From Cyanidioschyzon merolae (taxonomy: Eukaryota), in the NCBI GenBank assembly GCA_000091205.1, contig AP006502.2: 64,000 nt of DNA. The stretch is one strand, 5' to 3'. Made by a program: the position numbers and the translations under genes. This document shows, in pieces, positions 25,844 through 60,800 of this stretch; within the stretch, counting starts at the first letter, position 1, and each line of letters opens with the position of its first letter. Below the pieces are notes generated by a model. It worked only from the letters and a program-made list of their open reading frames with translations. It was not told the DNA's origin and searched no databases.

Positions 25844-26817
25844 GCTTCAAAGTATATATGTCAGTCTATGAATTGAACTATATTACCTGTGTTAAAGTGA
25901 ATTTTAGCACCGTATGTTACGAGCAGTCGCGAAAGCTCCACACACGCACACACACAACCGTTGTATACCGAGCGGAGCAAAGAATTCGAGCCATTCGTGT
26001 GATGCGACGCAGCATGCGCTCGCCCGCAGCCGCTCGCCCGCAGCCGCTCCGTCGTGCGCATGCCGCGCCGCATCACACGATCCCAGATGTGACCGATCGC
26101 GGCGAACGACGTGACATCGATTTCCTTCCGATTCGATAGGGCGTGTGTCCGCTGACCACGGATCCAGGACTGCGGGATGGATGCAGGTACTCGGGGAAGC
26201 GTGCATCATGTTGCACTCTAATTTCGATTACCGTTAAGTTCTCTTGGGCGTGCGGGCCGTTTCGTACGTTCTATCTTGAACCGAGTGCCTGCCGTGCTGT
26301 ACCCATCATAGCACCGAGACCGCTGGCACGGATGCCGTATTGAGAAAGCACGCGGTATTGCGCGAATACTGAGGGTGTCGGCTCGATGCCATGATTCGTT
26401 CAACGCGGCACCGCAGTGCATAATCGTGCCGGGAGCCAGCAAGCTGTGCATGCGGACATCCTGTCTGCCGACGCGCGGAGCGATATGCTACGAGTCCGCT
26501 GCGACCAGGGCGACGCCCAGACGCAGCGTAACCGTCCCTAGTGCAAGAATAAAGTGCGATGCCGACGATTTGCTCAGGTATTGCCACAGCACGCGCCACA
26601 GAACAGAGCGTGAAACACGAGTCCAACAGACTTGGACGCTCCGCGGGACCTAATACCGAGGAGGTAAACTCTCGAGAATATGGAAAACCTTTTCTTCCTT
26701 CCACGCTACCGAGAAAGCGAAACGAAATTATGATACGGTTGCTAGTCAGTGATAAGTTTCTGTTCTTTCCGCACCATACTGCATCACAGGGATGATGCGT
26801 GCGCAGCTACGAGCCAT

Positions 26818-26990: not shown

Positions 26991-27095
26991 CTTGGAAGTA
27001 CGGCGTGGAATGATGGGCGCTTTCCCGGAGGCCGATACCCATCCAGCCCGCAATCTGGGATCCATGGTCCATGGGAACGTTTTGTCATCGAAAAG
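26991..27095 (+). repeat. Conserved non-coding element, copy 1. Its ~60-bp core is ~85% identical to 33495-33553.
   Basis: Both copies share the core cccgcaatctgggatccatGgtcCatggGaaCgttttgTcatcg. This copy lies ~245 bp upstream of the DDX3/Ded1 ATG and contains the ATG of a 66-codon upstream ORF (27071..27271). Confidence 0.7.
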
Positions 27096-27338
27096 AAAAA
27101 TCCGTCGCTGCAGCGGCGGCGACGGCGGCGACGGCGGCGGCGGCGGTGCCCAAACGCGCCCCCGCGAATCGCGTTACCGTTTCACAATCGCTTCTGCAGT
27201 CGTTTGTATACTGTGGAGAGAATACTGACGAAAATGCCAGAAGAAACAACATCAACAGTGTAAAGGAATGATCATAACGAGCAGAGGGATACGAGGGAGC
27301 GTCACGGTTCAGAAAGGGACGCCAGAGACGGCGCAAAG

Positions 27339-30899: not shown

Positions 30900-33400
30900 C
30901 ACGAGTTGCCATGAACCAAAATGATCGAGAACTTGAAGCGTATGTGATTTGACGAAGCTACACATAGGGATTGGACACGAGCGGAGGCTTTTAAATGTGA
31001 ATCGCATGATAAGATCGGCTATTAAATGAACCCTTTTTCGATAAAGTTGCGAATCATCTTGATTCTAGTGACGCTACGAAATCCGAGTAGACAGCATCGG
31101 AGGAGCCGCTTCGAAAGCGCGACCGAGAATCCGAGAAATTCCAATGAATCCATTAGCACCCTGTGTTCACTATCCTCTTTTTATACACATGTGATCAGAG
31201 AAACAAAAACGCTTTCTTCGAACGTCCAGGATAAATGAATACCTACTCACAGACGCTTCCCAGTCTTTTCCGACCGGCAGCCTGCTATCGGCTTCAGCTT
31301 CTCCTTGTACACTTTGAGCCTGAAAGGTTGCCCCATGAAGTTGGATCACCTCAGGTCCGCAGATCTCGTCTTCTGCACCGCATATCGTCTGGCGTGGATG
31401 GCGGCGTTGAAGTCTCGGTTCACGACCTCCATGCGTTTATTGCAGCTGGTTGGACTCACTATCGCGAGGCTCACTCGAACTTTTGCATTCTGTACCACTA
31501 CAGTCCCGCCATTGGCCTGTCGAGCAAACACCTTTTTTTTTGTCAGTGTCCCTCTTCTTCGTCACTTGCTCTTCTTCGTTCGATGGCCGGCGAGCATATT
31601 GTTTTCGTCCATTTCGGGCGCCCGGCGATGACGGGCCTGCAGGATCCTCGACTGCCATGTGCATAACTGTCCCTTGGATGTTTTGTTTCTTTAAAATGAA
31701 CGCACTTGTTTATGCCCCTTTGTGGTGACCTTCACGGACGGAGAAGGGCCTGCGGAGGAACGACGCATGATATCCCGATGTGTCGCCGTGTGCTGAACGC
31801 TCTAGCGATTCACCTAGAGGATCGATCAATACGTTTCATAATAGACAACACGCCTTCCATGGGCTTCAACCACGGAGCGTACGGAGGAACGAAAAGCAGC
31901 TCTACCCCGATAGAGTGCGCAAAAGCTCGGACGCAATGGGAACGCTGAAATGCCACGTTTTCCAACAGAGGGACGTCACCAGACCCACAGGTGAAAGGTC
32001 TTCGATCATTCAACAAAGTGGTTCATGCTGGCCTGTGAGCCTGCTCTACGAGCGAAACCGAAGGCTCCACTGGAATCCAGTGCACAGCTAGAACACATGA
32101 TGATGTCCTGGTTCTCTTCGAGTTCGATCATATATACAACGGGCCCCATCACCTCGAGTACCCGTGTACGCTCAGTCGATTTCATCCGATGGACGTGTCA
32201 TCTGCGGAGGGAAAACAAAGCAACATAACTCCGTTTCATACCGACCGCTGAGTTCCAGGACCGCTATTGTTGTGATTTCGATGGTAAATGGCCGTGCGTG
32301 AACCAGGACTTTTTCTGCGCTTGTATTCCAACGTTTTCAGGACTATACGAACAAACAGTGAAGAAACAGAGACGGTCATGGTGGCTACTAGCGTCGCTCT
32401 CTGCTTGCTGTGCGATGATCAATCGGTCGTTTACGATCATTGGCAGCAAACAGTCTTTGAGAATGCACATATCTGGCACGGAGCGCTTGTTGTTGTTTCT
32501 TTCAGTATTCCTCAACTATCTGGGTACATTGGTATGACCAACCTGAAGGAGTAATGCAGTCCTCCATGTGCACTTCCGTAAAGCGCATTTCCTATGGGCA
32601 ACTCGGCTCCGATCTACACTGTACATTGGAGTGTGATATCGATCGTCTGCTACGCAGCGTGGCAGGTGGCGGCACGAAACTGTTTTGAACGACTGTAACG
32701 GGAGGTGAATGGTGGAACCTGCAGTTATGGTGCAGAATGATGAATGACCTCACGTACGCGGATAACGTTGGCGCCCAATCGAAGATGTTTCAGTTCGTGA
32801 CTGCGAACCATCGATCAACGTACAGAAACGATCCGATTGCTTCATCCTATGGATGATGGAAAAAGAAGAGAAAATTACTATTGTATTGGCGAAAGTGTGC
32901 CGAAAGAACAGAAACAAACCACTAACTAGGAACTCGATAACAGTAGGTTTCCCTCTGTACGATAAACCTTAGAAAAGGGGGACGCTTTCCGTACGATCGA
33001 AAGTTTCCCTTGTAGACGGAAGAGCCCACAAGCCGGACGAGTCTCCGGGGCTCGTACTTCATGCCCCTCCCCCAGTGGCGGATGTTGTGACGAGACGTTA
33101 GCGACTCGTTCACATTGCGAATGCACTCTGGAACTCTGGGCAGTTGGACGGTGTCTGTGCGTCGCCCTGGTCCGGGTGGACTCCTGGAATATCGCTTCGC
33201 GCTGCTGCAGGCAATAGGTCTATATGCACAGCTTGCGGGGTTTCAGAATAATTATGCACTCTGACCCCGCTTCAGGTGAAGCACTCCTCGACCCGATGCC
33301 CTCAGTGGTATGACGAAGCCGTTCTGACTCCGTGATGCATCTGCTCCAGCGTTTTAGGCGCTACTGCCGGTGCATTGATGCAAGAACTCGGCACACGTTA
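30900..33400. mobile_element. AT-rich block with no long ORFs that harbours the mariner-like remnant. It is probably a decayed DNA-transposon insertion, and its boundaries are uncertain.
   Basis: GC content drops against the flanking genes. It contains a (T)10 run and the transposase fragments. A weak inverted match (gctcttc..cgt.c near 31568 and 33023) may mark degenerate TIRs. Confidence 0.35.
31810..32515 (-). pseudogene. Degenerate mariner-like (Tc1/mariner superfamily) transposase remnant.
   Basis: Minus-strand fragments in three frames align with the Mos1 transposase. CFFTVCSYSPENVGIQAQKKSWFTHGHLPS matches IVTGDEKWIHYDNPKRKKSWVKPGQPS, with the first DDE Asp lost. LVEQAHRPA matches LLHDNARPH. 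LLFVPPYAPWLKPME matches LPHPPYSPDLAPSD. Stops and frameshifts separate the fragments. Confidence 0.55.
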
Positions 33401-33449
33401 GAACGTACAAAACAACCAGCACATCCGAAAGAAAGTACAAGCAATGGAA

Positions 33450-33555
33450 CTTGGAGGTAGGGTGTAGCATCATGATGGAAGCTTTTTCGATTGCGATTAT
33501 CCATCCCGCAATCTGGGATCCATAGTCAATGGAATGTTTTGGCATCGGAACAAAA
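33450..33555 (+). repeat. Conserved non-coding element, copy 2, overlapping the annotated 5' end of the KMO ORF.
   Basis: It aligns with 26991-27095 over ~105 bp. The core is ccatcccgcaatctgggatccatagtcaatggaatgttttggcatcgg. Confidence 0.7.
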
Positions 33556-35805
33556 TCCATTTCTGCGCCAGAACAATTTTTCACTTGCACGCGAGACCAC
33601 CCAGAGCCGGAACTTGGGGCAAAGAGCGCTATGGCGTCTTCTGAAAGCTTCTCGGGCAAGGAATATACAATTGCTTCGAATGACCACACAACTGACCCGG
33701 TTCGGCGTGTGCTCCACTTTCATAGCGAAGCGAGTAAGGGCCTCAAGAACCGGGAAGAGGGCTCGTCAACCAAGCCGTCTCCGGCAAAGACGTTGCAGTT
33801 GTCTGAGAGCTGCGAACAAGACGCCCTTGCTTGCGCCTCAGAGGTGCGTATCCGAACGGTTCGCTCGTCACCAGAGTCTGGGTCACCAGGTGTCGCCGCT
33901 TCGACGGTGCTCGCACGTGACCCCGCTGTCGTGCTGGGTGCCGGCCCAGCGGGCTGCCTCATCGCACTCGAACTCAGTCGTCTTGGTATTCCCGTAGAAG
34001 TTTTTGAATATCGCTCCGCGCATTATTTTAGACCCTATATAGAGTACGCTGGAGGTGGCGGTGATCGGGCTCCTTACCAGCGATATCGCGGACGATCGAT
34101 CAATCTGGCACTTTCGGCGCGAGGTTTGCGTGCACTGGAAACCGTCGGACTCGCACAGCGCATCCAGCAAATAGGTGTGCCTATGCGGGGGCGCATGATC
34201 CACGATACAGCAGGACGCGTACACTTTCAGGCCTACGGTGGTCGTCCCGAGGAGTACTTGCTCTCGGTATCGCGCACCACGCTGAATCAGATGCTCGTGG
34301 AGACCTGTCTGCTCGATGAGCGCGGCCTGATTACGATGCATTTTGGAAAGAAATGTACCGACATTGATCTCGACCAGTGCGTCTTGACATTCGAGGATGG
34401 ATGGATGTCACCGAGGCACCACGGTTGGCCAGAATCAAATACTGAGGACACGGTTGATTCGCCACCGAGTAGCCGCAGCCTCGAGCGAGAACGAAGAGCG
34501 CGAAAGCGCGCAGCACCCGCGCGCGGCTTCCTGGGCACCAAAGAGAGAACGCCGCGTACGCCGCAGCACGACGCTACGCACAGAGAGCCTGGTGCCGAGG
34601 CCGTCCCCGGGTCGCTGATGTCGTCAACCGGACGCTCGACGTCAGCCGGAGCGGTCTCGACGCGTCATGTCACTGCAAGTTTTATCATAGGTGCGGATGG
34701 TGCACATTCGCGGGTGCGCCAAGCCATGCAACGACTTGTGCCTTTCAATTACGAGCAGGAGTACATCCCAACGGCGTACAAGGAGCTCTCGATTCCGTCA
34801 CGCATACAGCGAGATGACACCGGGGGCTCTTCGGGCGGTTACTTGTTGGCACCGCACGCGTTGCATATCTGGCCTCGACATCGCTTTATGTTGATTGCAC
34901 TGCCAAACCGAGACGGCTCCTTCACTGCTACGTTATTTATGAACAGAGATGCGGATCCAGGAGCGCCAGACGTGCCTTCGTTTGCAACCGTTCGAACGCC
35001 TTCGCAAATCCAGCAATTTTTCGAGTCCTATTTTCCGGATATTTACGCGCTTGTGCCATCGCTGGTCGCAGATTACCAGAGTAACCCGGTTGCTCCGCTC
35101 TTTACGATTCGCTGTGCACCATTTCATTACCGCGGCAGGGCGGTTCTCGTCGGAGATGCAGCACACGTGATGGTGCCGTTCTATGGTCAAGGTTGCAATG
35201 CCGCCATGGAGGATTGCCGGATTCTGGCAAATTTCTTCCGTGAAGAGATACGCCTCGCTGCGCTTCGAGCACCAAACAGACGCGTGCGGGGATGCGTGCG
35301 GCTCCCTGCCTCGGACTTGACGGTTGACTTCGAGGATGGCATTGCAGAGGACGACTTGACAGATGCGAAAGGCCTGCAGCGTGCTCTAGCCGATGATGGA
35401 TATCTGGGCGGTGTCGTAGATTCGGAATCCGAGGGCGCGGCACTTTTGGACCTGGAGCGGGTGTTCTCTGCCTATAGCGCTGAACGGAAACCGAATGCTG
35501 ACGCGATCACCAACTTGGCGCTCGAAAATTACTGGGAAATGGCCAGTAAGACCTCGTCGCGTCTTTTCCGCTGGAAACGTGAGATCCAAAACCAACTTCA
35601 CGCGCTCATGCCTTGTTATTTCATGAGCCTTTATCACATGATCTCATTCAGCAACATTCCCTATGCAGAAAGCGTTCGCAGAGCTCAGAAGCAGGATCGT
35701 GTCATGAACGCGCTCTTCCGCTCATTAGGCTTGGGCTGTGTCAGCTTTGCTGGATTCATGCTGTGGCGCGCTTGTCACTTGCTACGCAAAGCACAGAGAA
35801 ATTGA
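33529..35805 (+). CDS. KMO: Kynurenine 3-monooxygenase (FAD-dependent) with low-complexity insertions and a C-terminal TM segment.
   Basis: The FAD GxGxxG motif is VVLGAGPAGCLIALEL. Other motifs are FIIGADGAHSRVR and the diagnostic KMO motif VLVGDAAHVMVPFYGQGCNAAMEDC. A C-terminal hydrophobic anchor is present. The more likely start is the ATG at 33631 (MASSESF). Confidence 0.8.
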   Translation: MECFGIGTKSISAPEQFFTCTRDHPEPELGAKSAMASSESFSGKEYTIASNDHTTDPVRRVLHFHSEASKGLKNREEGSSTKPSPAKTLQLSESCEQDALACASEVRIRTVRSSPESGSPGVAASTVLARDPAVVLGAGPAGCLIALELSRLGIPVEVFEYRSAHYFRPYIEYAGGGGDRAPYQRYRGRSINLALSARGLRALETVGLAQRIQQIGVPMRGRMIHDTAGRVHFQAYGGRPEEYLLSVSRTTLNQMLVETCLLDERGLITMHFGKKCTDIDLDQCVLTFEDGWMSPRHHGWPESNTEDTVDSPPSSRSLERERRARKRAAPARGFLGTKERTPRTPQHDATHREPGAEAVPGSLMSSTGRSTSAGAVSTRHVTASFIIGADGAHSRVRQAMQRLVPFNYEQEYIPTAYKELSIPSRIQRDDTGGSSGGYLLAPHALHIWPRHRFMLIALPNRDGSFTATLFMNRDADPGAPDVPSFATVRTPSQIQQFFESYFPDIYALVPSLVADYQSNPVAPLFTIRCAPFHYRGRAVLVGDAAHVMVPFYGQGCNAAMEDCRILANFFREEIRLAALRAPNRRVRGCVRLPASDLTVDFEDGIAEDDLTDAKGLQRALADDGYLGGVVDSESEGAALLDLERVFSAYSAERKPNADAITNLALENYWEMASKTSSRLFRWKREIQNQLHALMPCYFMSLYHMISFSNIPYAESVRRAQKQDRVMNALFRSLGLGCVSFAGFMLWRACHLLRKAQRN

Positions 35806-42550: not shown

Positions 42551-43328
42551 TGTCCCTGTCATGCGAATGTTATTTCCGAGGTATTCTAGGTGTACAGCAT
42601 CGACATTGTCTGTGTACCAAGTGGAGCACACGGATTCGTGTGTAGGTCCAGGATTCGCGGTGGTCTTTTTCTCGGAATACGCCTTCGACGCTTTGCCGTC
42701 GGCGTTCGCGACGTCATCGGAATCGAGATGATTCGCGACGCTCTCCGAGAACACTTCAAGAAAGTAACCCGGATCATTATGCAGGGCATGCGTACGGGCC
42801 CCGGCGATTCTCCGTTGCGTACATGGAGCATGCCCAAACCGCGCATGCTCCAAGATACCGATCTCTGTTTCAGGACAGCTTGTGGGCGCAGCAGTGCTTG
42901 CCGCAGGACTGACGCGGAATAAATCGGGGTATCGTCCCGTGACGCCTTTTTCGCAAGCACATACCAAGCGTTCACTGAAAATCACTTGTGAACTGTTCGT
43001 AGACTCCGTTCGAAGCACACATCCTCGATTCCGTGTGGGCATCCACGACGCGCCATTTGACACCAGCGTGATGCCTCGTGCCTTGAACAGTACTCACCCT
43101 GACAACGGGCGAAATCGGGACTGGAAAGCCACCATCACCATCCTTTGACTGCCGAGCACGAAGCCGGCGAGAAAAGAAAAACCGGCGTGCTACGAGCTGG
43201 AGATAGTCGGGCGGAAACGGCATCGGTGTCGGAAGAGCGCGCAACGGCTTGTGTTGATGCGCATTGGCAGAGACTCGAACGCAAGCGCATACGCCTATGT
43301 TGCTACGCCTGTTCCATTTTATACTGAC
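42551..43328 (+). repeat. 778-bp dispersed repeat, copy A. It is ~99% identical to 53384..54161 and in direct orientation.
   Basis: Base-by-base comparison shows only about seven mismatches. The termini are 5'-TGTC...GAC(A/G)-3'. It contains the 5' ~170 codons of a minus-strand ORF (42347..43063) and about 265 bp upstream of it. Confidence 0.9.
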
Positions 43329-45664
43329 GTGAATGTAACGACAATCGGGAATGCTTTGTATCGAATGGATGATCTTCTCATGAAATAGGACAGATGAAGA
43401 TTCAGTTCGCGTCTCGCGATGGACGTCCTGCGAGCGGAGACGCTCGAAGCCCAGGGCGCTCTGCTGAGTCACCGCGTTTGCCTGGCAGCAGCCTGTGCAC
43501 TTGGCAGCGCGTCGCAATGCTAGCACGCAGCGTCCTCGAGCAGTCGTCTACAGCGACATGGCAGCGCCTTTTGCGTCTATATAGTCGCTGCGACGGCGAA
43601 TGGCACGCAACAGCAAGCATCTTCGACAGCCTTGGGACTCGAAGTGTCACTGGATTCTTTAAGCTCGCATGCGCTAGCGGACCACGGGACTGGAGCTGAC
43701 GCAACATCGCGCTCTCTGTGGATGAGACAAGGCCCAAGCTCCGATGACCGTCGGCGTTCGCGTGCCTCCCTGACTTGGGTGTGGTGCTTCTATCCAGTAT
43801 CATAGACCATGTACACCGAGAATACAGGTGAGTCCATCGAGTCTCGCCTCCATTGGGGAATGCAGCACCAGGATCCAGGGAATGTAGAAGCCTCCATAGA
43901 CAGCAGGGGTGCTTTCCCTGGTTAAAGACAGCGCTCGTCCATCCGGAAAACAGATGCGGTTGGACGCATCGAACCTTTACCAGGAAAGCAACCGCATGTA
44001 ACCCAGCCAGAGCGACGGCAACACAAGCGGAGATCTCCAAGCATACCGCACTATGTTCCATCCTCCGTAGGGTGGCACGCGAAGAAGAAACCTCTCGTGC
44101 ATGTGCGTTTCAAGGCTTTCTAATGGACGACGAGGCATCACCATTGGCATCATTGGATCAAGAAGAATCGTCCTCGCTTGATGGAAGGCTTTTGCAGGCG
44201 CCGCAGCCACGCGTTTTTCTGCGCACTTCCTGCCCGGCGCTCTTTCCGTATCTAGCCGCAGAACAAGAAGCGCGAACTGTGTGGAGACCGTTTCATGCAG
44301 TGTCTGCGGAACTGACGTCTTTTATACGCCTGCAGGACTTGTGCAGGCACGTTTTCTGGTATCATCTTCGACGAACGCCAGCGTCTGCACTAGAAGTCGT
44401 CTCTGGTTGTACCAGGGGCTGCTACCCCGTTTCGTGGTGTTTCCGCTCGGAATAGGTCTTTGTGCGGGATTCGAGCGCAGCACCGATTGCAGGCCTATCG
44501 CGCTACTGGTGTCATGTTTTGCGATTGTTTATCCCGAGAGCCCAGCCCATGTTTGCAAGCGGTCCAGAACATGGACTATGTTCGCTGCTATACCCCCGGT
44601 TCAAAGCTACATTCGTGACGGAATGCGGTCCCAGCGTGTCGACGAGGAGCTCCCCAGCACGACGCCCGAAGATCGCTGTGAATCGTGCCGTACAGGAGCT
44701 TCTGCGGATACACTCAGAATCGGATGCACCGCGATACCTGTTCGGGAGCTGCTTTCACATGGAAACGGATGTGCGGAGGAGGCGCAGAACGCTGTCCAGT
44801 GTCAACCTGATAGACATCGCTCCGCACTGAAATCGTCCGCAATAACTGACCGTCCCCCGAACGAGGTTACACCAGTTGAGGATGACGAGGAGGATTCGAA
44901 CGAGGCTGACGCTGTGGTCATCGGAGCGACACTCAAGCATTGCGCCAACATGCGCAGAGACGAACAAAGTTGGGCTGTTTGCTTCTCCAAAAAACCTGCG
45001 AAAGCAGCAGAGGAGCGACCAGTCGCCGATAAGAACAGGTTCAAGTATGCTCCTTTCGCGGGGACGCTGATTCCTCCATTATAGGCCCTGGGAAACGAAT
45101 TCCGATGACGATCGTTTGATGCTGCAGAGGCCACGACTCTGCAAGTCTCGCTTCAGGATACGCGTGCGCGCTTTCCAGAAACTTGCCACATTTGCATCGC
45201 TATTCCTCGTTGCTTCGGCTGGAATCGGGTTGCACATTCACGCGCACGCTGTCTATTCCAAGCGTGACCCACGAACGTGGGGTTTTCCCAATCCAGCACC
45301 AGAGGCTGCTAGTGCTACAATAGCCTCTGTCCTCGGAAATGCGCCAAGTTCTATGCTTCGATCGTACTTGTGCCATTGCCTTTTGGCTATAACGCTGCAT
45401 GAAAAGACCTCCGTCGCTTGGTACGGCGTCAGCGCACCAAACGCGCTGCCGCCTCATCTCGGGCGTTTTCTTCAACGCCCTACAACTGCGATACTACACG
45501 GAGTCTCGCATGCCGTGCGGCACTGCTGACTGGCATGGTACTCCCTGTACGAATTTGCGCCACGTTCACTGTATCGTCCGTGCTCCATGGCTCGCTTTTA
45601 ATCGCACCCGAAGCGAGTCACTTTGGATTAGCTCGTTGAGATAGGCAGATTCGCTTCGCAGAGA

Positions 45665-46591
45665 TCATGCTAATGGTTCAATCCCGCCATTGCGTTGCCA
45701 AGTATCCACAATCTCAACGGTTAGTAAAACTAGCCGCGTTGACTGGTTCAGAATCGCAGACTCTAAAGGAGACCTCTGGCTGGTTGAAGTCCCGATCGAG
45801 GTACCGGGCGCCTGGGGCATCGACTTGAGCTGCAGCTGCTGCTCCAGACGTATTCGAGCGAGATCATAGCCGGCTCGTGCTGCATCTACAATGGACTGCA
45901 CGAAGCGATCAAACTGGTCAGGAACTCGGAACTCCTCCGTGATCGCTCGATTCCGACTGGACTGTTCAGACGGGGCCTCCGGCGGCATGCGATCGCGAGG
46001 AAAGTTCACATAGCGAAGCACCTTGAAGACCAGCGTTAGCCATATCGTGCGCAGCTCTACTTCATCAGCTTCTAGTGGACGAGGGAGTTCGCCACTAGCG
46101 CTTCGGTTTCCAGAACGAAGTGACTCGGCACCGACGCGGCGGAGCTCGATTTCTAGCGCATCCAGCGAGTAACCAAGGCGGTAGGCCCGAACAGTGGAGG
46201 CAATAAACGACCGTAGTGCAGCAACATACGGCACGCCACTTTGCGGTAAGCATGCGTTGAGAAACGCCTCGTGGATGGCTCCCGCCACCCCGTTGACGTC
46301 ATCGTTCTCAGCGGCGGAGGATAACACCAGCCGATAGACTACGCCGCGAGGTGACGCAGATTGGTGCAGTGCTTTCCGGTGGCCTCTCCAGTGTAGCTCG
46401 GCGCTACCGAAGCTTGGCACGAAAGCCCCTGGTGCCAACGGGCAACCCATACCTCCAGATAAAGGCATCAGCTGAGTGCGTAGCGTGCGTTGCGGCAAAG
46501 CGGCAACCCGTCGGCCTCCAGCGTGCAAGTGCGTTCCTGCCGCTGCAAATGAAGCCGTTCGTCGTAGCGTGCTCATTGCAAAGCAGAGCAT
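45665..46591 (-). CDS. Hypothetical protein (308 aa) with an S/T/R-rich N-terminus that may be an organelle presequence.
   Basis: The ORF is long with balanced composition and has no recognisable motif. Confidence 0.35.
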   Translation of the reverse strand: MLCFAMSTLRRTASFAAAGTHLHAGGRRVAALPQRTLRTQLMPLSGGMGCPLAPGAFVPSFGSAELHWRGHRKALHQSASPRGVVYRLVLSSAAENDDVNGVAGAIHEAFLNACLPQSGVPYVAALRSFIASTVRAYRLGYSLDALEIELRRVGAESLRSGNRSASGELPRPLEADEVELRTIWLTLVFKVLRYVNFPRDRMPPEAPSEQSSRNRAITEEFRVPDQFDRFVQSIVDAARAGYDLARIRLEQQLQLKSMPQAPGTSIGTSTSQRSPLESAILNQSTRLVLLTVEIVDTWQRNGGIEPLA

Positions 46592-47841
46592 TGGCGGTAC
46601 ACCCTTTCACGTTTCCGTTATCGCTCTTAGCAGGGACAGCAACTCCACGCAGAAGCTGCGAAGCAAGCAAGTACCCGCTGTAGCTCAAGGCGGACGCCAG
46701 CGCTCGACGCGTGCCTCGGGATCTTCGCACGCGCGCCTGCGCTGCCGTTGGGCAGCCGCAGGTCGCTTATGATCGATGGTTTTTTTCGATGACAAAACGT
46801 TTCCATGGACTGCGGAAAACAGATTGCGGGTAGGTAATGGCAATCGAAGAAGCGTCCATCATGGTGCTACGCCCTATCTAAAAGTTCTATTACTTATAAT
46901 TCCCTTCGGATGAAATGGTCGTTTCGTGCGTTCTCTCTTTCGCCGAGTGCCTACCGCGAGCACCCGCCGTCGCGCGTATACCGCTGGTGCGCATGCCCCA
47001 CCGAGACAGAACCGCCTTTCTATGCTACTGAGGGCGTCCGCTCGAAGGATGATTCACCTGACACAGAATCAGGGCTCATTATCATTCTGGGAGCCTGCAA
47101 GCTGCGAGGCAGATATGCCGCTTGGGGCAGAGCGAAGCGATACACTAGGAGTCTACCGCGATCAGGACGACGCCCAGACACAGCATCCCGCTCCTAGTCT
47201 CCGAATATACTGCGCGTTGACGAGTTGCTCAGGTCTCGCTAAAGCACCAGCTACTGCAGAGTCGCATGAAGCACGAGTCGGGGAGACTCGTCCGGCTCGC
47301 GGGACCACCTGCCAATAAGATAAACTTTCGATAATATGGAAACCATTTCCCCTTTTAACGGTTATCGTTGAGGGCTGCGCAATTTTCATCATGTTGCTCG
47401 TTAGTGGTTCGTCTATGTTCTTTTGTCTGCAGCGCAGTCCATACGCGCACACCCGTATCTTGTAGGCATCAGACAAGACGCGTATCAGGCGGTTGAAAGG
47501 AAACGCGATCCTGACCATGAGCTTGTAGCTCTATGGTAAAAGACGTATTAGGGTTGAAGACGTAGCAAAGTATAGTGTTTTATCCCAATTGTGCTCCAAC
47601 ACTCAAGATAGTGTATTCATGTGATTTTTCACGGTTTATAGCAGAAGCGTTCGAAGTACGTTCTTTTTCTAAAAATAAAAATAAAGTTGTGGAAATAGAA
47701 GTGGAAGATCCTGGAGAGCTGGTATCCCCGGTTGCCGGAAACAGACGAATAACATTGCGGAGCAAAGAGGAATCGGGGAAGACGAAGAAGCAAAAAGGGG
47801 AGGCCCGACGCCGAAAGCTGCAAGAAAGACGATAATGCGAC

Positions 47842-49551
47842 GTGATGGTGGTGAAAGCCTGTCTTCTTAAACATATCAAGGATCCTTACAGGGAAAAGTT
47901 GCGAGACGCTATCAGAAACCGTATCGACTCGTACTCCAAGAGCATCGTCAAGGCGTCGTCAGGTCTGATGCATTTGGCGAGGGGGATGTATCGCGACGTG
48001 AAGCACATGGAAACAGTCGAGATTCCGGACGAGTTTTTCGATAAGACCTTTAGTCGTCAGCTGATGTTTGGCACAGGGGAAGCTCCGAGGGAAAATGAGC
48101 GAATGCATGCCCTCCACGAGAAACATCCCTTTTACAGGTTCGAGGGTAATCGAAACAAGGGGGACTGGGGTATTTACGACAATGGGGCGATGAAGTACCT
48201 CACGAATCTGAAAAACCATTTGACAGTGAACCTCGAACGTTTCATGATACGCGCCGTGTTTGCGCTCCACCCGGGCATCTCTCGCAATGGAAAATGGGCG
48301 ATTATCAGTGGCATCATGAAAGATCGCAAGCATGAAGACGAGATCGAATTTGTCGGAGAAAAGGCGTCAAACGAGAGCACGAGTGAGGATTCCGTCATCC
48401 GCGCGGTTATACAAGAGCATCGTGCAGTCTCGGGGCTGACGAACCCAGCAGAAAATGTATTAGATTTGAAAAAAGATAAGGAAAGATACTATCGCCTCGT
48501 CCTGCGCTATTTCGTGTTTTTGGACCGTGAACTCGAATGCAAGGCAGAGATGAAGCTGAATGGGACAAAAAATGAAGATTCGGGGAGACGGAAGGCTGCG
48601 CTTCTGGGTAAGCGCTTCAACGTCGTTCCGTTATGCAACATCAAGTCACATTTTGACACCATCGACTCCAGAATCGCTCACGGCAGCATAAAGGAGATCA
48701 GTCCGGAGTTCGATGTAAGGAGGACAGAGTTCACTGGTGGAAACCGGGAGACGTACTGGAAGAACATCTTCAATTTCAAACGGCTCAAAGTCAGCAAACA
48801 AAAGGTATTCACTGGGATGATCGAAAACAATGGGGTAGCCATGTGTGTCCACTATCGGCGGTCGAAGGTGGATCGCCCAATCGTGCCTTTCGCTTCGCCC
48901 TCTGCGAAGCATGAAGAAAGCAAAGAGGCGGATCCTGTGATGCAGGAGGTGCAGGATAACGACTCTGTCGTTGGCGCGGACCCGGGGAACACGAACATCG
49001 TAACCATCGCAGTACCCAAGCACGGGGTATATGGTAACGACGGCAATTTACGTCAGAAAGACATGCGTCTTTTGAGAATCTCGAGAGCGAGATGCTACCG
49101 AGAATCCGGTATAATGAATGTGAGGAAGAAAATTTCTGCATGGGATGCAGGAATGAAGGATCACCTGGAAGCCACGAGCGCGGTGACGAGCCGAGAAGCA
49201 GACTTTAAAGCTTTTCGGAAATTCGTGGAAGTTCGTGTTGCGCATTGGGATGCCCTGTGGGAGGAGTATACCGAGCCCAGATGGGCTCGTTTGCGTATGA
49301 ATCTATACTGTGGAAAGCAGCGGGCGTTCGCGAATTTTTTCAATGAGTTGAGCGCCTTGAAGGAGGATGAAAATCAGAGGCTAGTAGTAGCATACGGAGC
49401 AGGGCGATGGACGACCCAAAAAGGGTGTACACCAGCTCCAACGACGAGGGTGTACAAGGAGTGCGCACGGCGTTTCGTTACGAACCCGGTAGATGAGTTT
49501 CGAACATCGTATACACACCATGAACTGTGGTGTACACTTCAGAGGGTCTAG
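47842..49551 (+). CDS. Fanzor-like protein (eukaryotic TnpB/OMEGA-family RuvC nuclease homologue). This is the main ORF body, and it is interrupted at the C-terminus.
   Basis: A ~380-aa N-terminal region precedes the RuvC-I-like motif [16 protein letters not shown], whose Asp codon is at 48979-48981. Near the end, [15 protein letters not shown] resembles the TnpB TS-x-C zinc-finger lead-in. The ORF ends at an in-frame TAG (49549-49551). An in-frame TAA at 47833 separates it from an upstream 86-codon ORF with a K/R-rich NLS-like tail. Confidence 0.7.
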
Positions 49552-49763
49552 ATGGAAAAGTGTCCGGGGAGCCCCGAGGATATAGCAAAGTACGGACCGC
49601 TGACAGACGAGCAAATGGAAAGGATAACGAAAGTGCGCAGGCTACTTGCATTAGTGAGTAAACTCCTAACGGCACGAAACAGGTGGAGTTTGTGAACCGA
49701 GACTTGAACGCCGCTATCAATGTAAGGAGATGTGCGGTACTGGAGAATAGACCTCCAGACTAA
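49552..49763 (+). other. Displaced C-terminal segment of the Fanzor/TnpB-like gene carrying the RuvC-III motif. It reads as either a pseudogene tail or an exon after short introns.
   Basis: In the frame of positions divisible by 3, codons 49683..49763 read VEFVNRDLNAAINVRRCAVLENRPPD*, with RDLNAAINV being the canonical TnpB/Fanzor RuvC-III motif. It is separated from the main ORF by the TAG. A 29-nt GTGAGT..CTAAC..AG element (49654-49682) would splice frame 1 into this frame in phase. Confidence 0.6.
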
Positions 49764-50020
49764 ACAAGAGGGAACTTTGATGGACAATTCTGAAAGTTTT
49801 ACTATATGAGAAAAAGTTGGAAGCAGTTGTGGGTGGCCGGTCGAACAAGTCTGGCAGGCGTCTGCACATCAGTTGGAGACGTTTCGTTTAGGGTGTGTCG
49901 TTCGCCACTACTGTACACTGCCGGCAGCATCGTTCGACTTTAGATAGGCGTTTGGTGTTGGCTGCGTCTTAGACCTATAACGAGGCAGACCGATACGAAG
50001 CTCGGTGAAAGGAGCCGTTT

Positions 50021-51781
50021 ATGGGTCCCGCCGCTGCTCAGCCGCCACAGCTGGCGGCGCACGGACTCGACGAGAGCGGCTCGTTCCGGGACTCGGGCAC
50101 CGGCGTCTTTGAAGACAGCTACACTGCACAAGGCGGTTTCGCAGAGCTTAAAGCTCAGCCGCTGTCGGAAGCGTCGATGCCTCGACGTAAACATCAGACT
50201 GAAAGAGGAAAACTTGGCCGAGTAGACGGATTGTTCGAGGAGGCGCCCCCCGGTGACTCGGTTGTTATAGATACCGTCACTGCAGAAAACGGTTCCAGCT
50301 CGGCACGTAGGAGGTTTGAGTGGCGGTTGGCACTCCGTAAGCTCGGTCCGGCTTTTCTAATCTCAATCGGGTACATGGATCCGGGAAACTGGGCTACGGA
50401 TATCGAGGGCGGCTCACGTTTCGGCTATCGGCTGCTGTGGGTGCTGGTTGTCTCCAACGTCATGGCGTGGCTGCTACAAACGCTTGCTTCACGCCTGGGT
50501 ATCGTGACAGGTCGCCATTTGGCACAGCTGTGTCGCGAGGCGTATCCGCGCATCATCGCGATGACGCTGTTCGCGCTCGCCGAAACAGCGATCATCGCTA
50601 CGGACCTGGCGGAAGTCATTGGAACGGCCGTTGGCTTGAATTTGGTCTTGGGTATCCCGCTCCTGCTCGGTATCCTGGTGACAACGCTCGACACGCTCCT
50701 GCTTCTGATGGCACAGCGTGCTGGTGGGCTACGTCGGATCGAACAAATTGTCCTATCTTTGTTATTCGTCATCACGATATGCTTCGCATTGGAGCTGGTA
50801 TTGAGCAAACCCAGTTTCATCCAAATGATTGGAGGGCTGGTACCGCGTATCGACGGGCAAAGCCTTCTGGTTGCTCTAGGTATGTTGGGCGCGACGGTGA
50901 TGCCGCACAATTTCTACCTCCACTCCGCCATTGTGATTCGTGATGCGACTGTGAGGCGCCCTGCCGACTCGTGCGTGTCCACGTCGGCGACACGCACGGC
51001 AGACGGGACAGCGCATAACGGACACGACTTGGCAGGCTGCACTGATGATTCGGATCGCGGGCGCGAACTCGAGTGCGTCTATTCAGCGATCGACTGTGCG
51101 GTTGCGCTGAATGCGGCGTTCTTTATTAATGCGGCGATTCTTATCACAGCGGCATCCTCTTTTTGGGCGAATCACGTGCAAGTGGCGACCTTGCAGGAAG
51201 CACATGCCCTTTTAGAGCGCGTGCTACCCATTCGTCTCTGGGGTCGCGTGGAAGTTGCGCCGCTCGTCTTTGGGATCGCTTTGATCGCAGCAGGCCAGTC
51301 AAGTACCATCACCGGAACACTCGCCGGCCAGTATGTCATGGAGGGCTTTCTAGGACTTTCTCTGCAGATGTGGCAACAGCGATTACTGACGCGGCTATGC
51401 GCGGTCGTGCCGAGCGTGCTGGTTATCATCCTACTTGGGCCCGAGAGCACCTACAGGCTCTTAATTCTTTCCCAGGTAGTTCTATCGCTTCAGCTGCCAT
51501 TCGCGATTGTGCCCATGATTCGATTCACTGGGAGCAAGGCACTCATGGGTGAGCGGTTTGCCTCGGGAATGTGGACTCGTATCTGTGCCTGGTGCGCTGC
51601 TGCGTTCATCATCGTACTGAACCTGTGGATGGCTGGCTCGATGCTCTTCGATGCCTTCCGGGTGCAGTCTGGTCGAACTGCTGGCGCAGTCGTTGGCGGT
51701 GTTCTCGCCGTTCCGCTCACCATCTATCTTCTCGGTGTACTGGTCTGGCTGTGTATGTACAGAGGGTTTAGAAATGAATGA
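50021..51781 (+). CDS. NRAMP: NRAMP-family divalent metal transporter (MntH/DMT1-like).
   Basis: The NRAMP motifs are IGYMDPGNWATDIEGG and MPHNFYLHSA. The ORF has about 11-12 TM helices and stops at TGA. Confidence 0.9.
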   Translation: MGPAAAQPPQLAAHGLDESGSFRDSGTGVFEDSYTAQGGFAELKAQPLSEASMPRRKHQTERGKLGRVDGLFEEAPPGDSVVIDTVTAENGSSSARRRFEWRLALRKLGPAFLISIGYMDPGNWATDIEGGSRFGYRLLWVLVVSNVMAWLLQTLASRLGIVTGRHLAQLCREAYPRIIAMTLFALAETAIIATDLAEVIGTAVGLNLVLGIPLLLGILVTTLDTLLLLMAQRAGGLRRIEQIVLSLLFVITICFALELVLSKPSFIQMIGGLVPRIDGQSLLVALGMLGATVMPHNFYLHSAIVIRDATVRRPADSCVSTSATRTADGTAHNGHDLAGCTDDSDRGRELECVYSAIDCAVALNAAFFINAAILITAASSFWANHVQVATLQEAHALLERVLPIRLWGRVEVAPLVFGIALIAAGQSSTITGTLAGQYVMEGFLGLSLQMWQQRLLTRLCAVVPSVLVIILLGPESTYRLLILSQVVLSLQLPFAIVPMIRFTGSKALMGERFASGMWTRICAWCAAAFIIVLNLWMAGSMLFDAFRVQSGRTAGAVVGGVLAVPLTIYLLGVLVWLCMYRGFRNE

Positions 51782-52145
51782 TCAGCGTAAAATTTGGCGG
51801 TCGTCTCACCGGCAGCGCTATGCGGTGCACGCCGCCGCGATTGATGCCGTCGAGGCTGCCGTCCGCGGCGACGAAGTACCAGCCTGGATCAGACGAACCT
51901 GCGACCTCGTCAGCGCTGCGTTCGCGATGGAACAGGATCCGATCCGTATGGATCAGCACACACTCTAAACGAAGACGAAACCTATACCGTGGGGCGTCTT
52001 TCCGAATTTGGCGTCCTTCTTCGCGGCAATGCCCACGGTCCACCGACGGCAGGGGCAGCGACAGTCCAACGCCAAACACGTAACGACGCTTTTGTGACCC
52101 GAAAAGCACAAAAACGAAGCTGAGCATCTGGCGCCGCAGTGTCCA

Positions 52146-53383: not shown

Positions 53384-54161
53384 TGTCCCTGTCATGCGAA
53401 TGTTATTTCCGAGGTATTCTAGGTGTACAGCATCGAAATTGTCTGTGTACCAAGTGGAGCACACGGATTCATGTGTAGGTCCAGGATTCGCGGTGGTCTT
53501 TTTCTCGGAATACGCCTTCGACGCTTTGCCGTCGGCGTTCGCGACGTCATCGGAATCGAGATGATTCGCGACGCTCTCCGAGAACACTTCAAGAAAGTAA
53601 CCCGTATCATTATGCAGGGCATGCGTACGGGCCCCGGCGATTCTCCGTTGCGTACATGGAGCATGCCCAAACCGCGCATGCTCCAAGATACCGATCTCTG
53701 TTTCAGGACAGCTTGTGGGCGCAGCAGTGCTTGCCGCAGGACTGACGCGGAATAAATCGGGGTATCGTCCCGTGACGCCTTTTTCGCAAGCACATACCAA
53801 GCGTTCACTGAAAATCACTTGTGAACTGTTCGTAGACTCCGTTCGAAGCACACATCCTCGATTCCGTGTGGGCATCCACGACGCGCCATTTGACACCAGC
53901 GTGATGCCTCGTGCCTTGAACAGTACTCACCCTGACAACGGGCGAAATCGGGACTGGAAAGCCACCATCACCATCTTTTGACTGCCGAGCACGAAGCCGG
54001 CGAGAAAAGAAAAACCGGCGTGCTACGAGCTGGAGATAGTCGGGCGGAAACGGCATCGGTGTCGGAAGAGCGCGCAACGGCTTGTGTTGATGCGCATTGG
54101 CAGAGACTCGAACGCTAGCGCATACGCCTATGTTGCTACGCCTGTTCCATTTTATACTGAC
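53384..54161 (+). repeat. 778-bp dispersed repeat, copy B, the partner of 42551..43328.
   Basis: Same as copy A. Its ORF copy is 53339..53896 on the minus strand, which diverges once outside the repeat. Confidence 0.9.
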
Positions 54162-57829: not shown

Positions 57830-60800
57830 GGTGCTTTGCGGACGTCACCGTTCGCAAGGGTTTCAAAAGTCGGCGTCGCTGGCCAGCACCCAGGAACACC
57901 GCAGTCAAACGCGCCACCGGATGCTCCAGTTGATATTCAGAGAGCGCGCCCTGAGTACTCTGTGGTCGTAAGCGTCGATTCTGCAGCGCAGCACGCCACC
58001 CCAACGTGTACAACGTGTGTGAAGCGACTTCACGTTGCAGTACAACGGAGCGCCTGCAAGAGCACAGGTTCAAGTAGGCAACGCAGTGCAGCTGCCGACT
58101 TGCCGCAACGCAATGCAGCGCGACGTGCCGAGTCTGACGGCGTTACAGCCAGCGTGTTGCTGCTCAAGCGGTCCTCGATGCACTGCCTGCTGGAATACCT
58201 TTCCATGCAGGTCCTTCTTGTTTTTCGTTTGGTTTTCTCGCAGGTACTCACTGAAAGGAATTTATTGGGTTGCTTGGGGAAAAGTTGCGTAAAGACTTGA
58301 TCCTGTAAATACTAGCTTGCGAAGACGCAGACTCATTTGCACAAGTCAGCAATTCTGCGGGCAGCACGTGGATGACGCACCCTGTTCGTCGACGTTATCC
58401 TGAACGCCGCGCACTCAAAACATAACCTGTGGAACTCTATGTACACGGCCATCTCCTCGTCCATACATGCTACTCGAGACGTTTTCTACCGAATAATACT
58501 AGAGAAACCACAGGTACTGAAGTGTCCACAACATTGAAACGAACGATGACGAAGGGACACCGATGGAGAACGGAAACAGGTGCGCTTCTGCTGGAGATCG
58601 TCGTGCGTTGAGCAACAAACGATCGATGTCGCACTGAAACGCGATCGCTCAGTCCAACACGAACGAGTTTTCGACTCAGTCTACGAGACCTCGTTGGGAG
58701 AAACGCCAGACCGATACATGCGGTACTCCAAACGGGCTAATCATCTGACCGAATCGGAGAGACAAGCGAGCGTCTCGAAAATGTCATTCCGAGCGGCGAT
58801 TCAATCGACAGGTCACCTGTGAAGCGACAAGCGATCTTTTCTGTTCAGCAATGCGTCCATCATCGAGGCGGCCCGGTGGCTTCTCCGCCGCGCATTCCTC
58901 TGTCTCGCTCGTACACATCGTCGCTTTCCATCATTCACAGGCGGTGAACGAGTACGCAGCTCCGATTCGCGTTGAACCGGTCGTCGTGTTAACCTATTCT
59001 CTCAGGTTCACTTGACTCGAATGCATCGTGTCTACTGTAGCAACGCCATTTTGACGCTCGCGAATCATTGGATGAGTCACTCGCATCCGTGGCACCGTTC
59101 TTCGACAAGTGGTTCGATACCTTCACCAGTCTTGGACTGGTATATTGCCGGCCTGCTCGTGGGCCGGAAGGAGCGAAAAGATGCACTCCGGTCCATGGCC
59201 GTGCACGCAACGGAACAGGTGACGAAAAACTGCATGTGAGGAAGTTGAGATACATGCACGAAAAAGGCGAGTTTCGGTGCTACTGCCCAACCTGCGCATC
59301 TGAATCCCGAGTGAAAACGGATATTGGATAGATTCAGCACATCCATGCAAACCGGCTGCGCAAAGGAACAGATGAAGAAGGTGGCGGTAACTACGAGCAA
59401 GTATGATAAAGCCTTTGCACAATTTTGTGTGCAGCATTCGCTTAGCTCGTTCAAGGGTTCTCGTTTAAAGTGAGAATATGGAAATAAGTTGGCGTGGATG
59501 ATGGAGACCGAGGGGATATCCATCCGCACGCACTCTGTTCGACCGAAGCCAATGTCGAGGAACGAGACCCCTCGTCCATCGTTCAAGCTTGAGGAAGAGA
59601 ATGACGCTTTCGTGAGCGTGCTTCTCGGATTTCAGGAAATAATCGCCGCCACCCCACCTCTGTATGAAGACAACGGAGCCAGAAACCAGAATGGAAACCA
59701 CATGAAGCTGCTCAAACATTGACGGGACTCGTTATGATCGGGGATCGGTCACGATGACCCCCAAGAGGCATGCCCGCAGTAGAGTGAGCGTGCCAAGACG
59801 CATGCCGACGCCCTCAGTACAGCACCGGGCAGCGGCAGATGCCTTGCGCCCTGCATTCAGAGAGAGCACACACACGAGCGCTCAAACGAAGCATGCGGAC
59901 GACGTATGCTGGGCGATCATGAGACCGCTCGGGATTCGTCAACGATGTCGATTTTACGGATGCAGGAAGCAGGTATTCGCCAAATTTTCGAATGTGTCGG
60001 AGACGGCAATGACGAACAAGTTGGATCGTTTCGTGGCAGCCTATGGCGCTGGACGCAGTGTGACGCCCAGAGCAGCACTCCTGTATCTTCGACGAGCGCG
60101 TACACCGAGTGCTGGAATCGATGGTATACGATTCCTGTCGATGCGCTCCCTAACGACATACACGCATCACAGCGACGGATGCACACACGGAAACAGACGG
60201 ATAAGAAGAGACGGAAATCGACATGGACACACGAAACGCTGGGCGGTAAACTCTGACCGAACATCAAATGGCGAAGCACTCGAAAACGAGGCGCTCGCGA
60301 TGGTGTAACACGACCAGCAACCCGACGTGCAAGCATGTTCTGCGTACCCCGAGACCTGAGCGCCCCGCTCAACGCCTGCAAAAGTATCGTACGTACGGAG
60401 CGCTCAGCAGGTTTGTTTCAAGCGATACTTCGAAGGCATCGCACAGTGCATCGTGCGGGCATTGTGCTAGAACGCCGATGACTTGCGATGGAACGAGTCA
60501 GTGGCCAGAAGCGAGAGCATCGGATTCTTGCCTTGAGCAAAGCACGCGCATGGTACGGTTCAGGTATCCGTGAGAAAGGCCAAAACGCGCGGCATATACG
60601 TCTACATGGATCGGGAACGATTTTCCCGGTCAATAGTTGAACCATGATATTGTTCCGGTATACGACACCAGCGAGTCTATGAAGCTTAGAATCTATGGAT
60701 GTACGACGGAGCAAGCATGCATATCCGAAGACGCGCCCAGGTTACCATCGAGAGCAACTCGGCCGAGTGCCAAGTCAACCGAATACGTCTGCTGCAACAC

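Follow-up and report, generated by a model that had tools for sequence, protein, structure and literature searches.

The window analysed here is a 64-kb stretch of DNA from the thermoacidophilic alga Cyanidioschyzon merolae, in which a repeat unit of 3189 bp (GC 0.499) occupies positions 46780..49968 on the + strand. The unit, which we read as a degenerate CMe-1A Fanzor1 element, lies between a gene for a 308-aa host protein and an Nramp (manganese transporter) gene, the latter identical over 586 of 586 residues to XP_005539209.1 of C. merolae 10D. Its limits were drawn from coverage by related loci. Among non-orthologous loci, coverage climbs from 0 to 10-78 precisely between 46780 and 49963, and comparison with one further locus (L041) extends the right end to about 49968, so that coverage is zero at 46780 and about 49968 while up to 78 loci cover the copy in between. 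The left end is sharp and lies at a T-run, and full-length units at other loci likewise measure about 3.18 kb. A division into "long" and "short" element classes was considered and rejected as an artefact of blastn sensitivity, as all units measure about 3.18 kb and differ in their 5′ modules. In total, 286 related stretches were found in the metagenome collection; these copies come from hot-spring metagenomes and not from the 10D assembly, and the divergence values given below therefore pool paralogues from more than one strain or species. The preliminary description had proposed a mobile origin for an AT-rich island beginning near 47300; mobility is supported by this multicopy distribution and by the sharp loss of coverage at both ends, and the island is not single-copy. 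Position 47300, however, is not the edge of the element, which begins at 46780 and whose 5′ module is host-like in GC (0.546).

The unit is modular, with a 644-bp 5′ module of host-like composition followed by a 2.5-kb Fanzor unit. The 5′ module (46780..47423, +; GC about 0.55) resembles TE-N2_CMe, is non-coding, starts with TTTTTTTCGATGACAAAACGTTTCC and ends in ...TATGTTCTTT. Two stand-alone occurrences, at 32903-33557 (-) and 26223-26768 (+), lie elsewhere in the window and share its 3′ end point, and the module copies within the 64 kb are about 69-71% identical to each other; other subfamilies bear a different 5′ module. The right end of the stand-alone module shows no convincing similarity to that of CMe-1A apart from a T/G-rich tail. 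Variability across codon positions in the module is flat (0.19/0.19/0.19) and thus carries no codon-phase signal. The module is followed by the AT-rich leader of the Fanzor unit (47424..47688, +), delimited by the GC profile and by comparison of copies and conserved among them from about 47457 onward. The leader contains the A-rich run aaaaataaaaataaag at 47671-47686, directly 5′ of the family start-codon position, in agreement with the AT-rich run quoted earlier. The conceptual reading frame of the Fanzor1 pseudogene, traced by three-frame translation and homologue comparison, spans 47689..49891 (+) and includes, at 48904..48979 (+), a single 75-bp coding unit (about 25 aa, KHEE.KEADP..QEVQDND) recognized from overlapping blastn matches; in other copies this unit is tandemly arranged in 1-4 repeats, visible in P0001-P0004. 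Right-end alignments define the 3′ non-coding tail and right end (49892..49968, +), with a conserved block GCCACTACTGTACAC, and a subterminal hairpin site at 49927-49951 (+) that is mutated in this copy. The last 15-20 nt of the unit are G/T-rich and loosely conserved.

The gene within the island had been described as a Fanzor, and profile comparison bears this out. A profile of eight family members matched PDB 9cf0 (Parasitella parasitica Fanzor 1) at E = 3.1e-8, with the next match at E of about 1, and the alignment spans three RuvC motifs (DPG.., DEFRTS and NRD..AA.N). A PDB search with the single sequence gave no match, only the family profile reaching a Fanzor structure, and Pfam searches with the 569-aa ORF and six homologues yielded no significant family (best, Cas12f1-like_TNB at E = 0.086 for P0068). 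From three-frame translation and the profile match, the first RuvC aspartate (GADPG) is placed at 48979-48981 (+) and the glutamate (DEFRTS) at 49495-49497 (+), and the profile match places the second aspartate (NRD), now out of frame, at 49701-49703 (+). The Fanzor1 motif given by Bao & Jurka 2013 (PMC3627910), D-X(125,275)-[TS][TS]-X-X-[zinc finger]-X(5,50)-RD, can be followed along the frame: D lies in GADPGNTN (48979), TS follows 172 codons later, and RD lies in VNRDLNAAIN (49698-49703), with the zinc-finger part matched loosely by an atypical HH..C...C arrangement. C. merolae is among the Fanzor1 hosts listed in the same paper (PMC3627910).

In this copy the gene carries at least six disabling lesions (start lost, three stops and two 1-nt deletions), leaving it without an intact ORF. 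By three-frame translation, the start codon has changed from ATG to GTG (47689-47691, +), and in-frame stops occur as TAA at 47833-47835 (+) and TAG at 49549-49551 (+), with a further TAA at 49761-49763 (+); alignment places single-nucleotide deletions, both unique to this copy, between 49660 and 49661 (+) and between 49787 and 49788 (+). Homologues 55-80% identical continue without interruption across these positions, and the TAA at 47833 is CGA in three 98-99% identical strains. The longest open stretch runs from 47842 to 49551. A 29-nt intron (GTGAGT...CAG, 49655-49683) that would restore the frame was rejected because relatives all code straight through, a 1-nt deletion lies there and the other lesions would persist. 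Judged by its reading frame, the Fanzor1 gene of this copy is a pseudogene, and the copy itself is old and, as predicted from these lesions, inactive. Intact ORFs occur in few family members (819 codons in L001 and 762 in L022). Across the family, ORF variability by codon position is uneven (0.116/0.100/0.147, vs the flat 0.19 of the 5′ module), which argues for probable selection on the Fanzor ORF at the level of the family.

The abrupt shift toward AT-richer DNA near 47300 is real. The GC profile passes from 0.55-0.62 in the flanks to 0.44-0.52 at about 47300-49970, and the interval 47300-49990, at 0.489, is the minimum of all 2691-nt intervals in the 64 kb (mean 0.565, sd 0.024; 0.08% as low), with 47300-47841 at 0.448. 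Only one other region of the 64 kb, at about 29.5-33 kb, is comparably GC-poor, and it holds remnants of the same CMe-1A family. The accompanying claim that Fanzor codon usage differs from that of the host genes stands in one respect and fails in another: the leave-one-out synonymous-codon score of the Fanzor ORF falls below host genes (z = -2.8), about midway between random and host usage, whereas its GC3 (0.596 vs 0.612 ± 0.029, n = 15 host ORFs) is host-like rather than poor. GC1/GC2/GC3 are 0.521/0.386/0.596 in the Fanzor ORF and about 0.64/0.49/0.61 in host ORFs. When the Fanzor protein, which is rich in Lys/Asn/Glu/Ile and poor in Ala/Leu/Pro, was recoded with host codon usage, GC came to 0.514 ± 0.007, as compared with an observed 0.501 and a host-gene average of 0.580, so that about 0.066 of the 0.079 deficit in GC is attributable to protein composition. 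Most of the lowering in GC goes back to the encoded protein and to the family consensus, which at 0.494 is as AT-rich as this copy; eight other family copies have GC of 0.485-0.513, with flanks of 0.52-0.61. The contrast with the surroundings has two sources, namely a protein composition that depresses GC at codon positions 1 and 2 and the AT-rich leader of the Fanzor unit. Since the family consensus has the same composition, the low GC is an inherited family trait and not a sign of recent arrival or of AT-biased decay.

Two other explanations of the low GC were weighed against inheritance from the family. It is highly improbable that the unit is a recent insertion or a recent horizontal acquisition whose AT-richness marks DNA not yet adjusted to the host, as the preliminary description had suggested. 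Such an arrival would be consistent with the real GC trough and its fairly sharp edges, with the codon score below that of host genes and with the absence of element sequence from the corresponding locus of a related cyanidiophyte (L086-L088), where ABC1, a gene of roughly 310 aa, Nramp and Arf lie in synteny. The copy, however, matches the family consensus at 85% identity and no other copy at more than 82.5%, within a family whose members are 82-91% identical to the consensus and about 80% identical pairwise; it bears the lesions described above and a mutated right-end hairpin; its GC3 is host-like; and three environmental strains that are 98-99% identical carry the insertion at this locus too. 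The family had, moreover, already been described as old, with about 80% identity to consensus (PMC3627910). Because the relative without the insertion is distant (its Nramp is 68% identical), its empty locus says nothing about recency, and its 1.5-kb intergenic DNA is unalignable, so no base-exact insertion site can be read from it. In strains that are 99% identical, the contigs are interrupted at the ends of the element and so yield no empty site from the same species. A recent arrival is already largely refuted, and neither "recent" nor "horizontal" is supported. The codon score indicates that the ORF is not fully host-like, which fits relaxed selection in a repeat and, taken alone, is also compatible with the CMe-1A family having had an older foreign origin.

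A pseudogene in a repeated family is also a usual substrate of mutational decay, and a dead repeat could in principle acquire a trough of this kind through a bias from GC to AT or through a process resembling RIP or deamination that targets repeated DNA. This explanation is very unlikely: the family consensus is already AT-rich, the substitutions by which this copy departs from it run about equally in both directions (146 S>W and 140 W>S; 0.115 and 0.108 per site), and the 5′ module of the same element retains a GC of about 0.55. The AT-richer island is therefore best understood as having inherited its contrast, and it is very probably the segment of an old, inactive CMe-1A copy that carries the Fanzor gene, CMe-1A being a non-autonomous, TIR-less repeat family of the C. 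merolae nuclear genome. As a general caution, a local GC trough at a mobile-element gene need not signal a recent or foreign origin; most of the trough here follows from the amino-acid composition of a nucleic-acid-binding protein, and synonymous sites match the host.

The Fanzor1 product of the family is presumably a TnpB-like, RuvC-type, RNA-guided nuclease, and the 3′ tail of the gene is conserved in the family. By analogy, we infer that intact members may be omega-RNA-guided nucleases, with a putative guide RNA that overlaps both the gene's 3′ end and the right end of the element, as in Fanzor/TnpB systems characterized elsewhere. Because the register of the right-end hairpin shifts between subfamilies, column-wise covariation cannot score it, and the hairpin was scored copy by copy against shuffles: most copies have it (mean z = -2.1; z below -1.5 in 19 of 30), but the copy at 46780-49968 has lost it (z = +1.5). 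From 30 right-end sequences, RNAalifold derived a weak consensus (-8.8 kcal/mol; two pairs with double changes). A systematic helix search of the right ends returned mostly G-U-rich, probably spurious helices and no convincing compensatory covariation, and Rfam gave no match.

The way in which the family moves can be approached through its ends and its modular build. The earlier observation that clear TIRs and TSDs are lacking proved correct: comparison of left ends with reverse-complemented right ends in four copies gave z = 0.1 to 2.3, and the best TSD-like matches were no better than random controls. The CMe-1A unit encodes no transposase. A hidden transposase in 46780-47840 was rejected for want of a codon-phase signal or a conserved ORF. 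An IS607-like (Fanzor2-type) or IS200/IS605-like element was likewise rejected, since no serine recombinase or Y1 HUH TnpA gene is adjacent; the interval 46780-47688 has neither a coding signal nor a conserved ORF, and Pfam returned nothing. The search for Helitron or IS607-like termini that had been proposed revealed a 3′ hairpin and an upstream T-run, with no CTRR, significant asymmetric TIR or serine recombinase.

One tentative and unlikely explanation is that CMe-1A and TE-N2_CMe are non-autonomous rolling-circle elements (HUH-type, Helitron2- or IS91-like) whose 5′ modules are swapped by read-through to the hairpin end of the next element. The joint lack of TIRs and TSDs, a conserved subterminal hairpin confined to the right end, and the pairing of copies head-to-tail and head-to-head are in keeping with it, as are a shared left end with two right ends (TE-N2 vs CMe-1A) and a shared right end with different left modules. 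The left end, moreover, always abuts a T-run of variable length, recalling the TTTT target of the Chlamydomonas Helitron2 elements that carry Fanzor1 (PMC3627910). However, no Rep/helicase gene was found in about 80 loci or in the 64-kb window, there is no 5′ hairpin or CTRR-like 3′ end, asymmetric TIR scores do not rise above chance (z = 0-2.3), and an apparent excess of 3′ parts is biased by locus retrieval. CMe-1A was, moreover, left unclassified by the very authors who had defined it and Helitron2 (PMC3627910). It is a speculative and rather improbable proposition that intact CMe-1A members (e.g., L001, L022) encode an active RNA-guided nuclease of a thermoacidophilic alga, and that the architecture of the family, with its TIR-less, TSD-less and modular build, its right-end hairpin and its T-run target, reflects undescribed rolling-circle-like or Fanzor-assisted movement with no known autonomous partner.

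The element at 46780-49968 is an ordinary and already known one, a decayed copy of a family on record since 2013 in a model alga whose genome is fully sequenced, and the locus itself has little significance. The CMe-1A family is mildly interesting, and its few intact copies, coming from a thermoacidophile, could be candidates for heat- and acid-tolerant Fanzor nucleases.

Among known systems, the Helitron2 elements of Chlamydomonas reinhardtii that carry Fanzor1 (CRe-1,2,3; PMC3627910) share with the C. merolae family an algal host, a captured Fanzor1, the lack of TIRs, a 3′ hairpin and a T-rich 5′ flank; they differ in that no 5′ hairpin, asymmetric TIRs or variable-length TSDs were detected in the CMe-1A family, which is not known to resemble any RepHel-encoding partner. 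With Fanzor1 RNA-guided nucleases of solved structure (e.g., Parasitella parasitica Fanzor 1, PDB 9cf0) the family shares RuvC D-E-D residues in the same order and context, a basic, NLS-like N-terminus and a gene adjoining the right end. The likeness is at the profile level only (E = 3e-8) and Pfam TnpB/Cas12f models were not significant; the zinc-finger region reads HH...C...C with no clear C4, and the copy at 46780-49968 is a pseudogene. The closest correspondence is with CMe-1A itself, which Bao & Jurka (2013, Mob DNA 4:12, PMC3627910) describe as a C. merolae Fanzor1 element about 3 kb long and present in about 150 copies that are about 80% identical to the consensus; it lacks TIRs, its TSDs are given as undetermined, and its 5′ 635 bp equal TE-N2_CMe, an unclassified repeat of about 70 copies. 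The present analysis arrived independently at each of these features of CMe-1A, and the assignment is based on the shared genome and the match to this published description. The two have in common the C. merolae 10D genome, a unit of about 3.2 kb with a single Fanzor1 ORF and without a transposase, about 80% identity among copies, the lack of TIRs or recognizable TSDs, 5′ sequence of ~640 bp that is also a separate repeat, and an intact ORF in only a few copies; nothing substantive separates them, the present copy being a degenerate member. The module at 46780-47423 is likened to TE-N2_CMe by the same description, as both form the 5′ end of CMe-1A and the module likewise stands alone (32903-33557, 26223-26768) with a fixed 3′ end. 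To the available account of CMe-1A the present comparison adds subfamilies that differ in their 5′ module and a tandem repeat, variable among copies, of a 75-bp coding unit.

The GC content of the region drops from 0.55-0.62 to 0.44-0.52 at ~47300 and stays low to 49970, with an immediate recovery thereafter (400-nt sliding profile). No 2691-nt window of the 64 kb falls below the 0.489 of 47300-49990 (window mean 0.565, sd 0.024; 0.08% equally low), where GC is at its lowest (0.448) in the non-coding leader (47300-47841); a comparably GC-poor stretch is found only at ~29.5-33 kb. The AT-rich island that the preliminary description had reported around a Fanzor gene is thus real, and the A-rich run quoted there is found at 47671-47686.

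Related stretches numbered 286 in a scan of metagenome contigs; 80 loci were retained and compared with 45000-52000, excluding three orthologous contigs from coverage. Non-orthologous coverage is 0 up to 46779, 10-78 loci over 46780 to ~49963, and 0 by 49980, and this confinement supports the mobile origin proposed for the island. The left end is sharp, with unrelated flanks followed by TTTTTTTCGATGACAAAACGTTTCCATGG. At the right end the block GCCACTACTGTACAC is conserved and is followed by a hairpin site and then by 15-20 G/T-rich nt of looser conservation; comparison with the related locus L041 puts this end at ~49968. Coverage and termini therefore place the element start 520 bp before the AT-rich island begins; full-length units in other loci are also ~3.18 kb. 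The neighbours are ordinary eukaryotic genes, including Nramp (50021-51781), an Arf-like GTPase and an ABC1 kinase, and the Nramp protein clusters with XP_005539209.1 of Cyanidioschyzon merolae 10D (586/586 identical); the window thus comes from 10D or from a strain that cannot be told apart from it. In a more distantly related cyanidiophyte, whose Nramp is 68% identical, the syntenic locus has the same gene order and no Fanzor-related sequence between a ~310-aa gene and Nramp; therefore, the element is an insertion between conserved neighbours. This relative is too distant for dating the insertion, and its intergenic DNA is unalignable.

The element is modular. Its 5′ module (46780-47423; 644 bp, GC ~0.55) carries no codon-phase signal, with a variability of 0.19 at all three phases versus 0.116/0.100/0.147 in the Fanzor ORF. 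Stand-alone modules resembling the separate C. merolae element TE-N2_CMe, ~69-71% identical to 46780-47423, occur at 32903-33557 (-) and 26223-26768 (+) and both stop at a common ...TCTGTTCTTT point, and an inverted left-end fragment lies at 27010-27097 (-). In other subfamilies, the same Fanzor unit follows a 5′ module of comparable length but unrelated sequence. Adjoining family copies were also observed in fixed arrangements, either head-to-head (loci L024:1410-7102, L053 and L055) or head-to-tail with a ~45-nt spacer (L009, L034 and L052), which suggests an insertion preference beside existing copies or co-mobilisation.

The absence of clear TIRs and TSDs noted previously holds under controls: in four full-length copies, the left 60 nt scored against the reverse-complemented right 60 nt do no better than shuffles (z = 0.1 to 2.3), and the best TSD-like matches are no better than those of random position pairs. 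Most copies possess a subterminal right-end hairpin, reading GCGTCGTTCGA-CTT-TCGAACGGCGT or, with the register shifted, T-rich (mean z = -2.1; z < -1.5 in 19/30); in the window copy it carries mutations (z = +1.5). Over the last 340 nt, RNAalifold and a systematic helix search yielded no convincing covariation that would indicate a structured RNA, and an Rfam search of the window was without match. Rolling-circle-type movement fits the modular design lacking TIRs and TSDs, the hairpin and the upstream T-run, but is improbable; no Rep-like partner was seen in the window or in the ~80 related loci.

The longest ORF (47842-49551, +; 569 aa) had no match in Pfam or, as a single sequence, in PDB searches, and has 69 strong homologues in environmental data (55-80% identity). 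A family profile built from eight of these matches a single protein of solved structure, that of Parasitella parasitica Fanzor 1 (9cf0; E = 3.1e-8, next E ~1), in an alignment spanning the three RuvC motifs (DPG.., DEFRTS and NRD..AA.N), so that the identification as Fanzor1 holds at the family level. Three-frame translation, intact relatives and a 30-sequence DNA alignment identify the window copy as a pseudogene. Its lesions are a lost start (family ATG to GTG, 47689-47691), stops at 47833-47835 (TAA), 49549-49551 (TAG; GAG/Glu in relatives) and 49761-49763 (TAA), a 1-nt deletion between 49660 and 49661 that is unique to this copy and takes the third RuvC motif out of the reading frame, and a second between 49787 and 49788. 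The relatives' ORF terminates at a TAG corresponding to 49889-49891, and thus the non-coding tail is just ~75 nt. The TAA at 47833-47835 reads CGA (Arg) in three independent contigs from environmental strains 98-99% identical (L047, L048 and L068); the lesion is of recent origin in this strain's lineage, as neutral decay predicts. Strain-specific lesions are still building up in the pseudogene (TAA in 10D versus CGA in these three strains). Directly upstream of the first RuvC aspartate lies a 75-bp in-frame unit (~25 aa, KHEE.KEADP..QEVQDND), single in the window copy (48904-48979) and present as 2-4 tandem repeats in many others (e.g., L001:11225-11376, L010:3281-3430 and L069:3299-3527), giving Fanzor proteins of variable length.

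The composition had been read as a sign of recent mobile or horizontal origin. In the Fanzor ORF, GC at the first, second and third codon positions is 0.521/0.386/0.596, against ~0.64/0.49/0.612 on average in 15 long host ORFs (sd of GC3 0.029), so that the deficit resides in positions 1 and 2 rather than at synonymous sites. Residues K, N, E, D, M, Y, I and F are over-represented in the protein, and A, L, P, Q and S are under-represented. When re-encoded with host codon usage it yields a GC of 0.514 +/- 0.007 (observed, 0.501; host average, 0.580), and amino-acid composition therefore accounts for ~0.066 of the 0.079 gap. The assertion that codon usage is unlike that of the host stands in part: the leave-one-out synonymous-codon score is lower (-0.002 versus 0.075 +/- 0.028, z = -2.8), roughly halfway from random (-0.087) to host usage, which fits relaxed selection in a repeat, whereas GC3 is host-like. 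The Fanzor-unit consensus itself has a GC of 0.494, eight other copies range from 0.485 to 0.513 while their flanks have 0.52-0.61, and substitutions from consensus to window copy are balanced (146 GC>AT versus 140 AT>GC). The low GC is thus a trait inherited within the family, neither a trace of recent import nor a product of AT-biased decay, and, with the host-like GC3, leaves horizontal origin unsupported. A recent insertion is not supported either: the window copy shares 85.3% identity with the consensus and 79.5% on average (maximum 82.5%) with 33 distinct other copies, and only 2/34 distinct copies keep an open frame of 750 codons or more. Given this divergence, the lesions and the broken hairpin, it is an old, dead insertion.

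Further repeats lie nearby. A 778-bp direct repeat pair (42551-43328 and 53384-54161; 99.4% identity, 10.8 kb apart) flanks the element, Nramp and Arf-like genes on both sides; it is outside the Fanzor family because no related locus covers it, contains no convincing ORF, and may be either a young repeat or the result of gene conversion. Remnants of the 3′ end of this type of Fanzor gene (40-55% amino acid identity to family members) occur at 8732-9218 (+) and 31226-31498 (-), the latter inside the GC-poor stretch at ~29.5-33 kb. A much more divergent Fanzor-like remnant at 59444-60475 (+) shares 23-35% identity with the family's proteins, P0060 being the best match (E = 3.6e-9). It lacks a long ORF, coincides with a shallower drop in GC at 58-60 kb, and may represent a second, older Fanzor1 lineage in C. 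merolae, versus the one family reported in 2013.

That family is CMe-1A, the only Fanzor1 family listed for C. merolae by Bao & Jurka (2013; PMC3627910); no other papers on Fanzor in Cyanidioschyzon were found in the literature searched. As described there, CMe-1A has ~150 copies, each ~80% identical to a consensus of ~3 kb, no TIRs and TSDs that could not be determined, and was left unclassified; its 5′ 635 bp are 95% identical to TE-N2_CMe, itself present in ~70 copies, and some copies still encode an intact Fanzor1 (PMC3627910). Each of these points agrees with the independently derived features of the window element (46780-49968, +) in the same genome, and on this likeness to the published description the element is assigned to CMe-1A, a known element already described in a well-studied genome.
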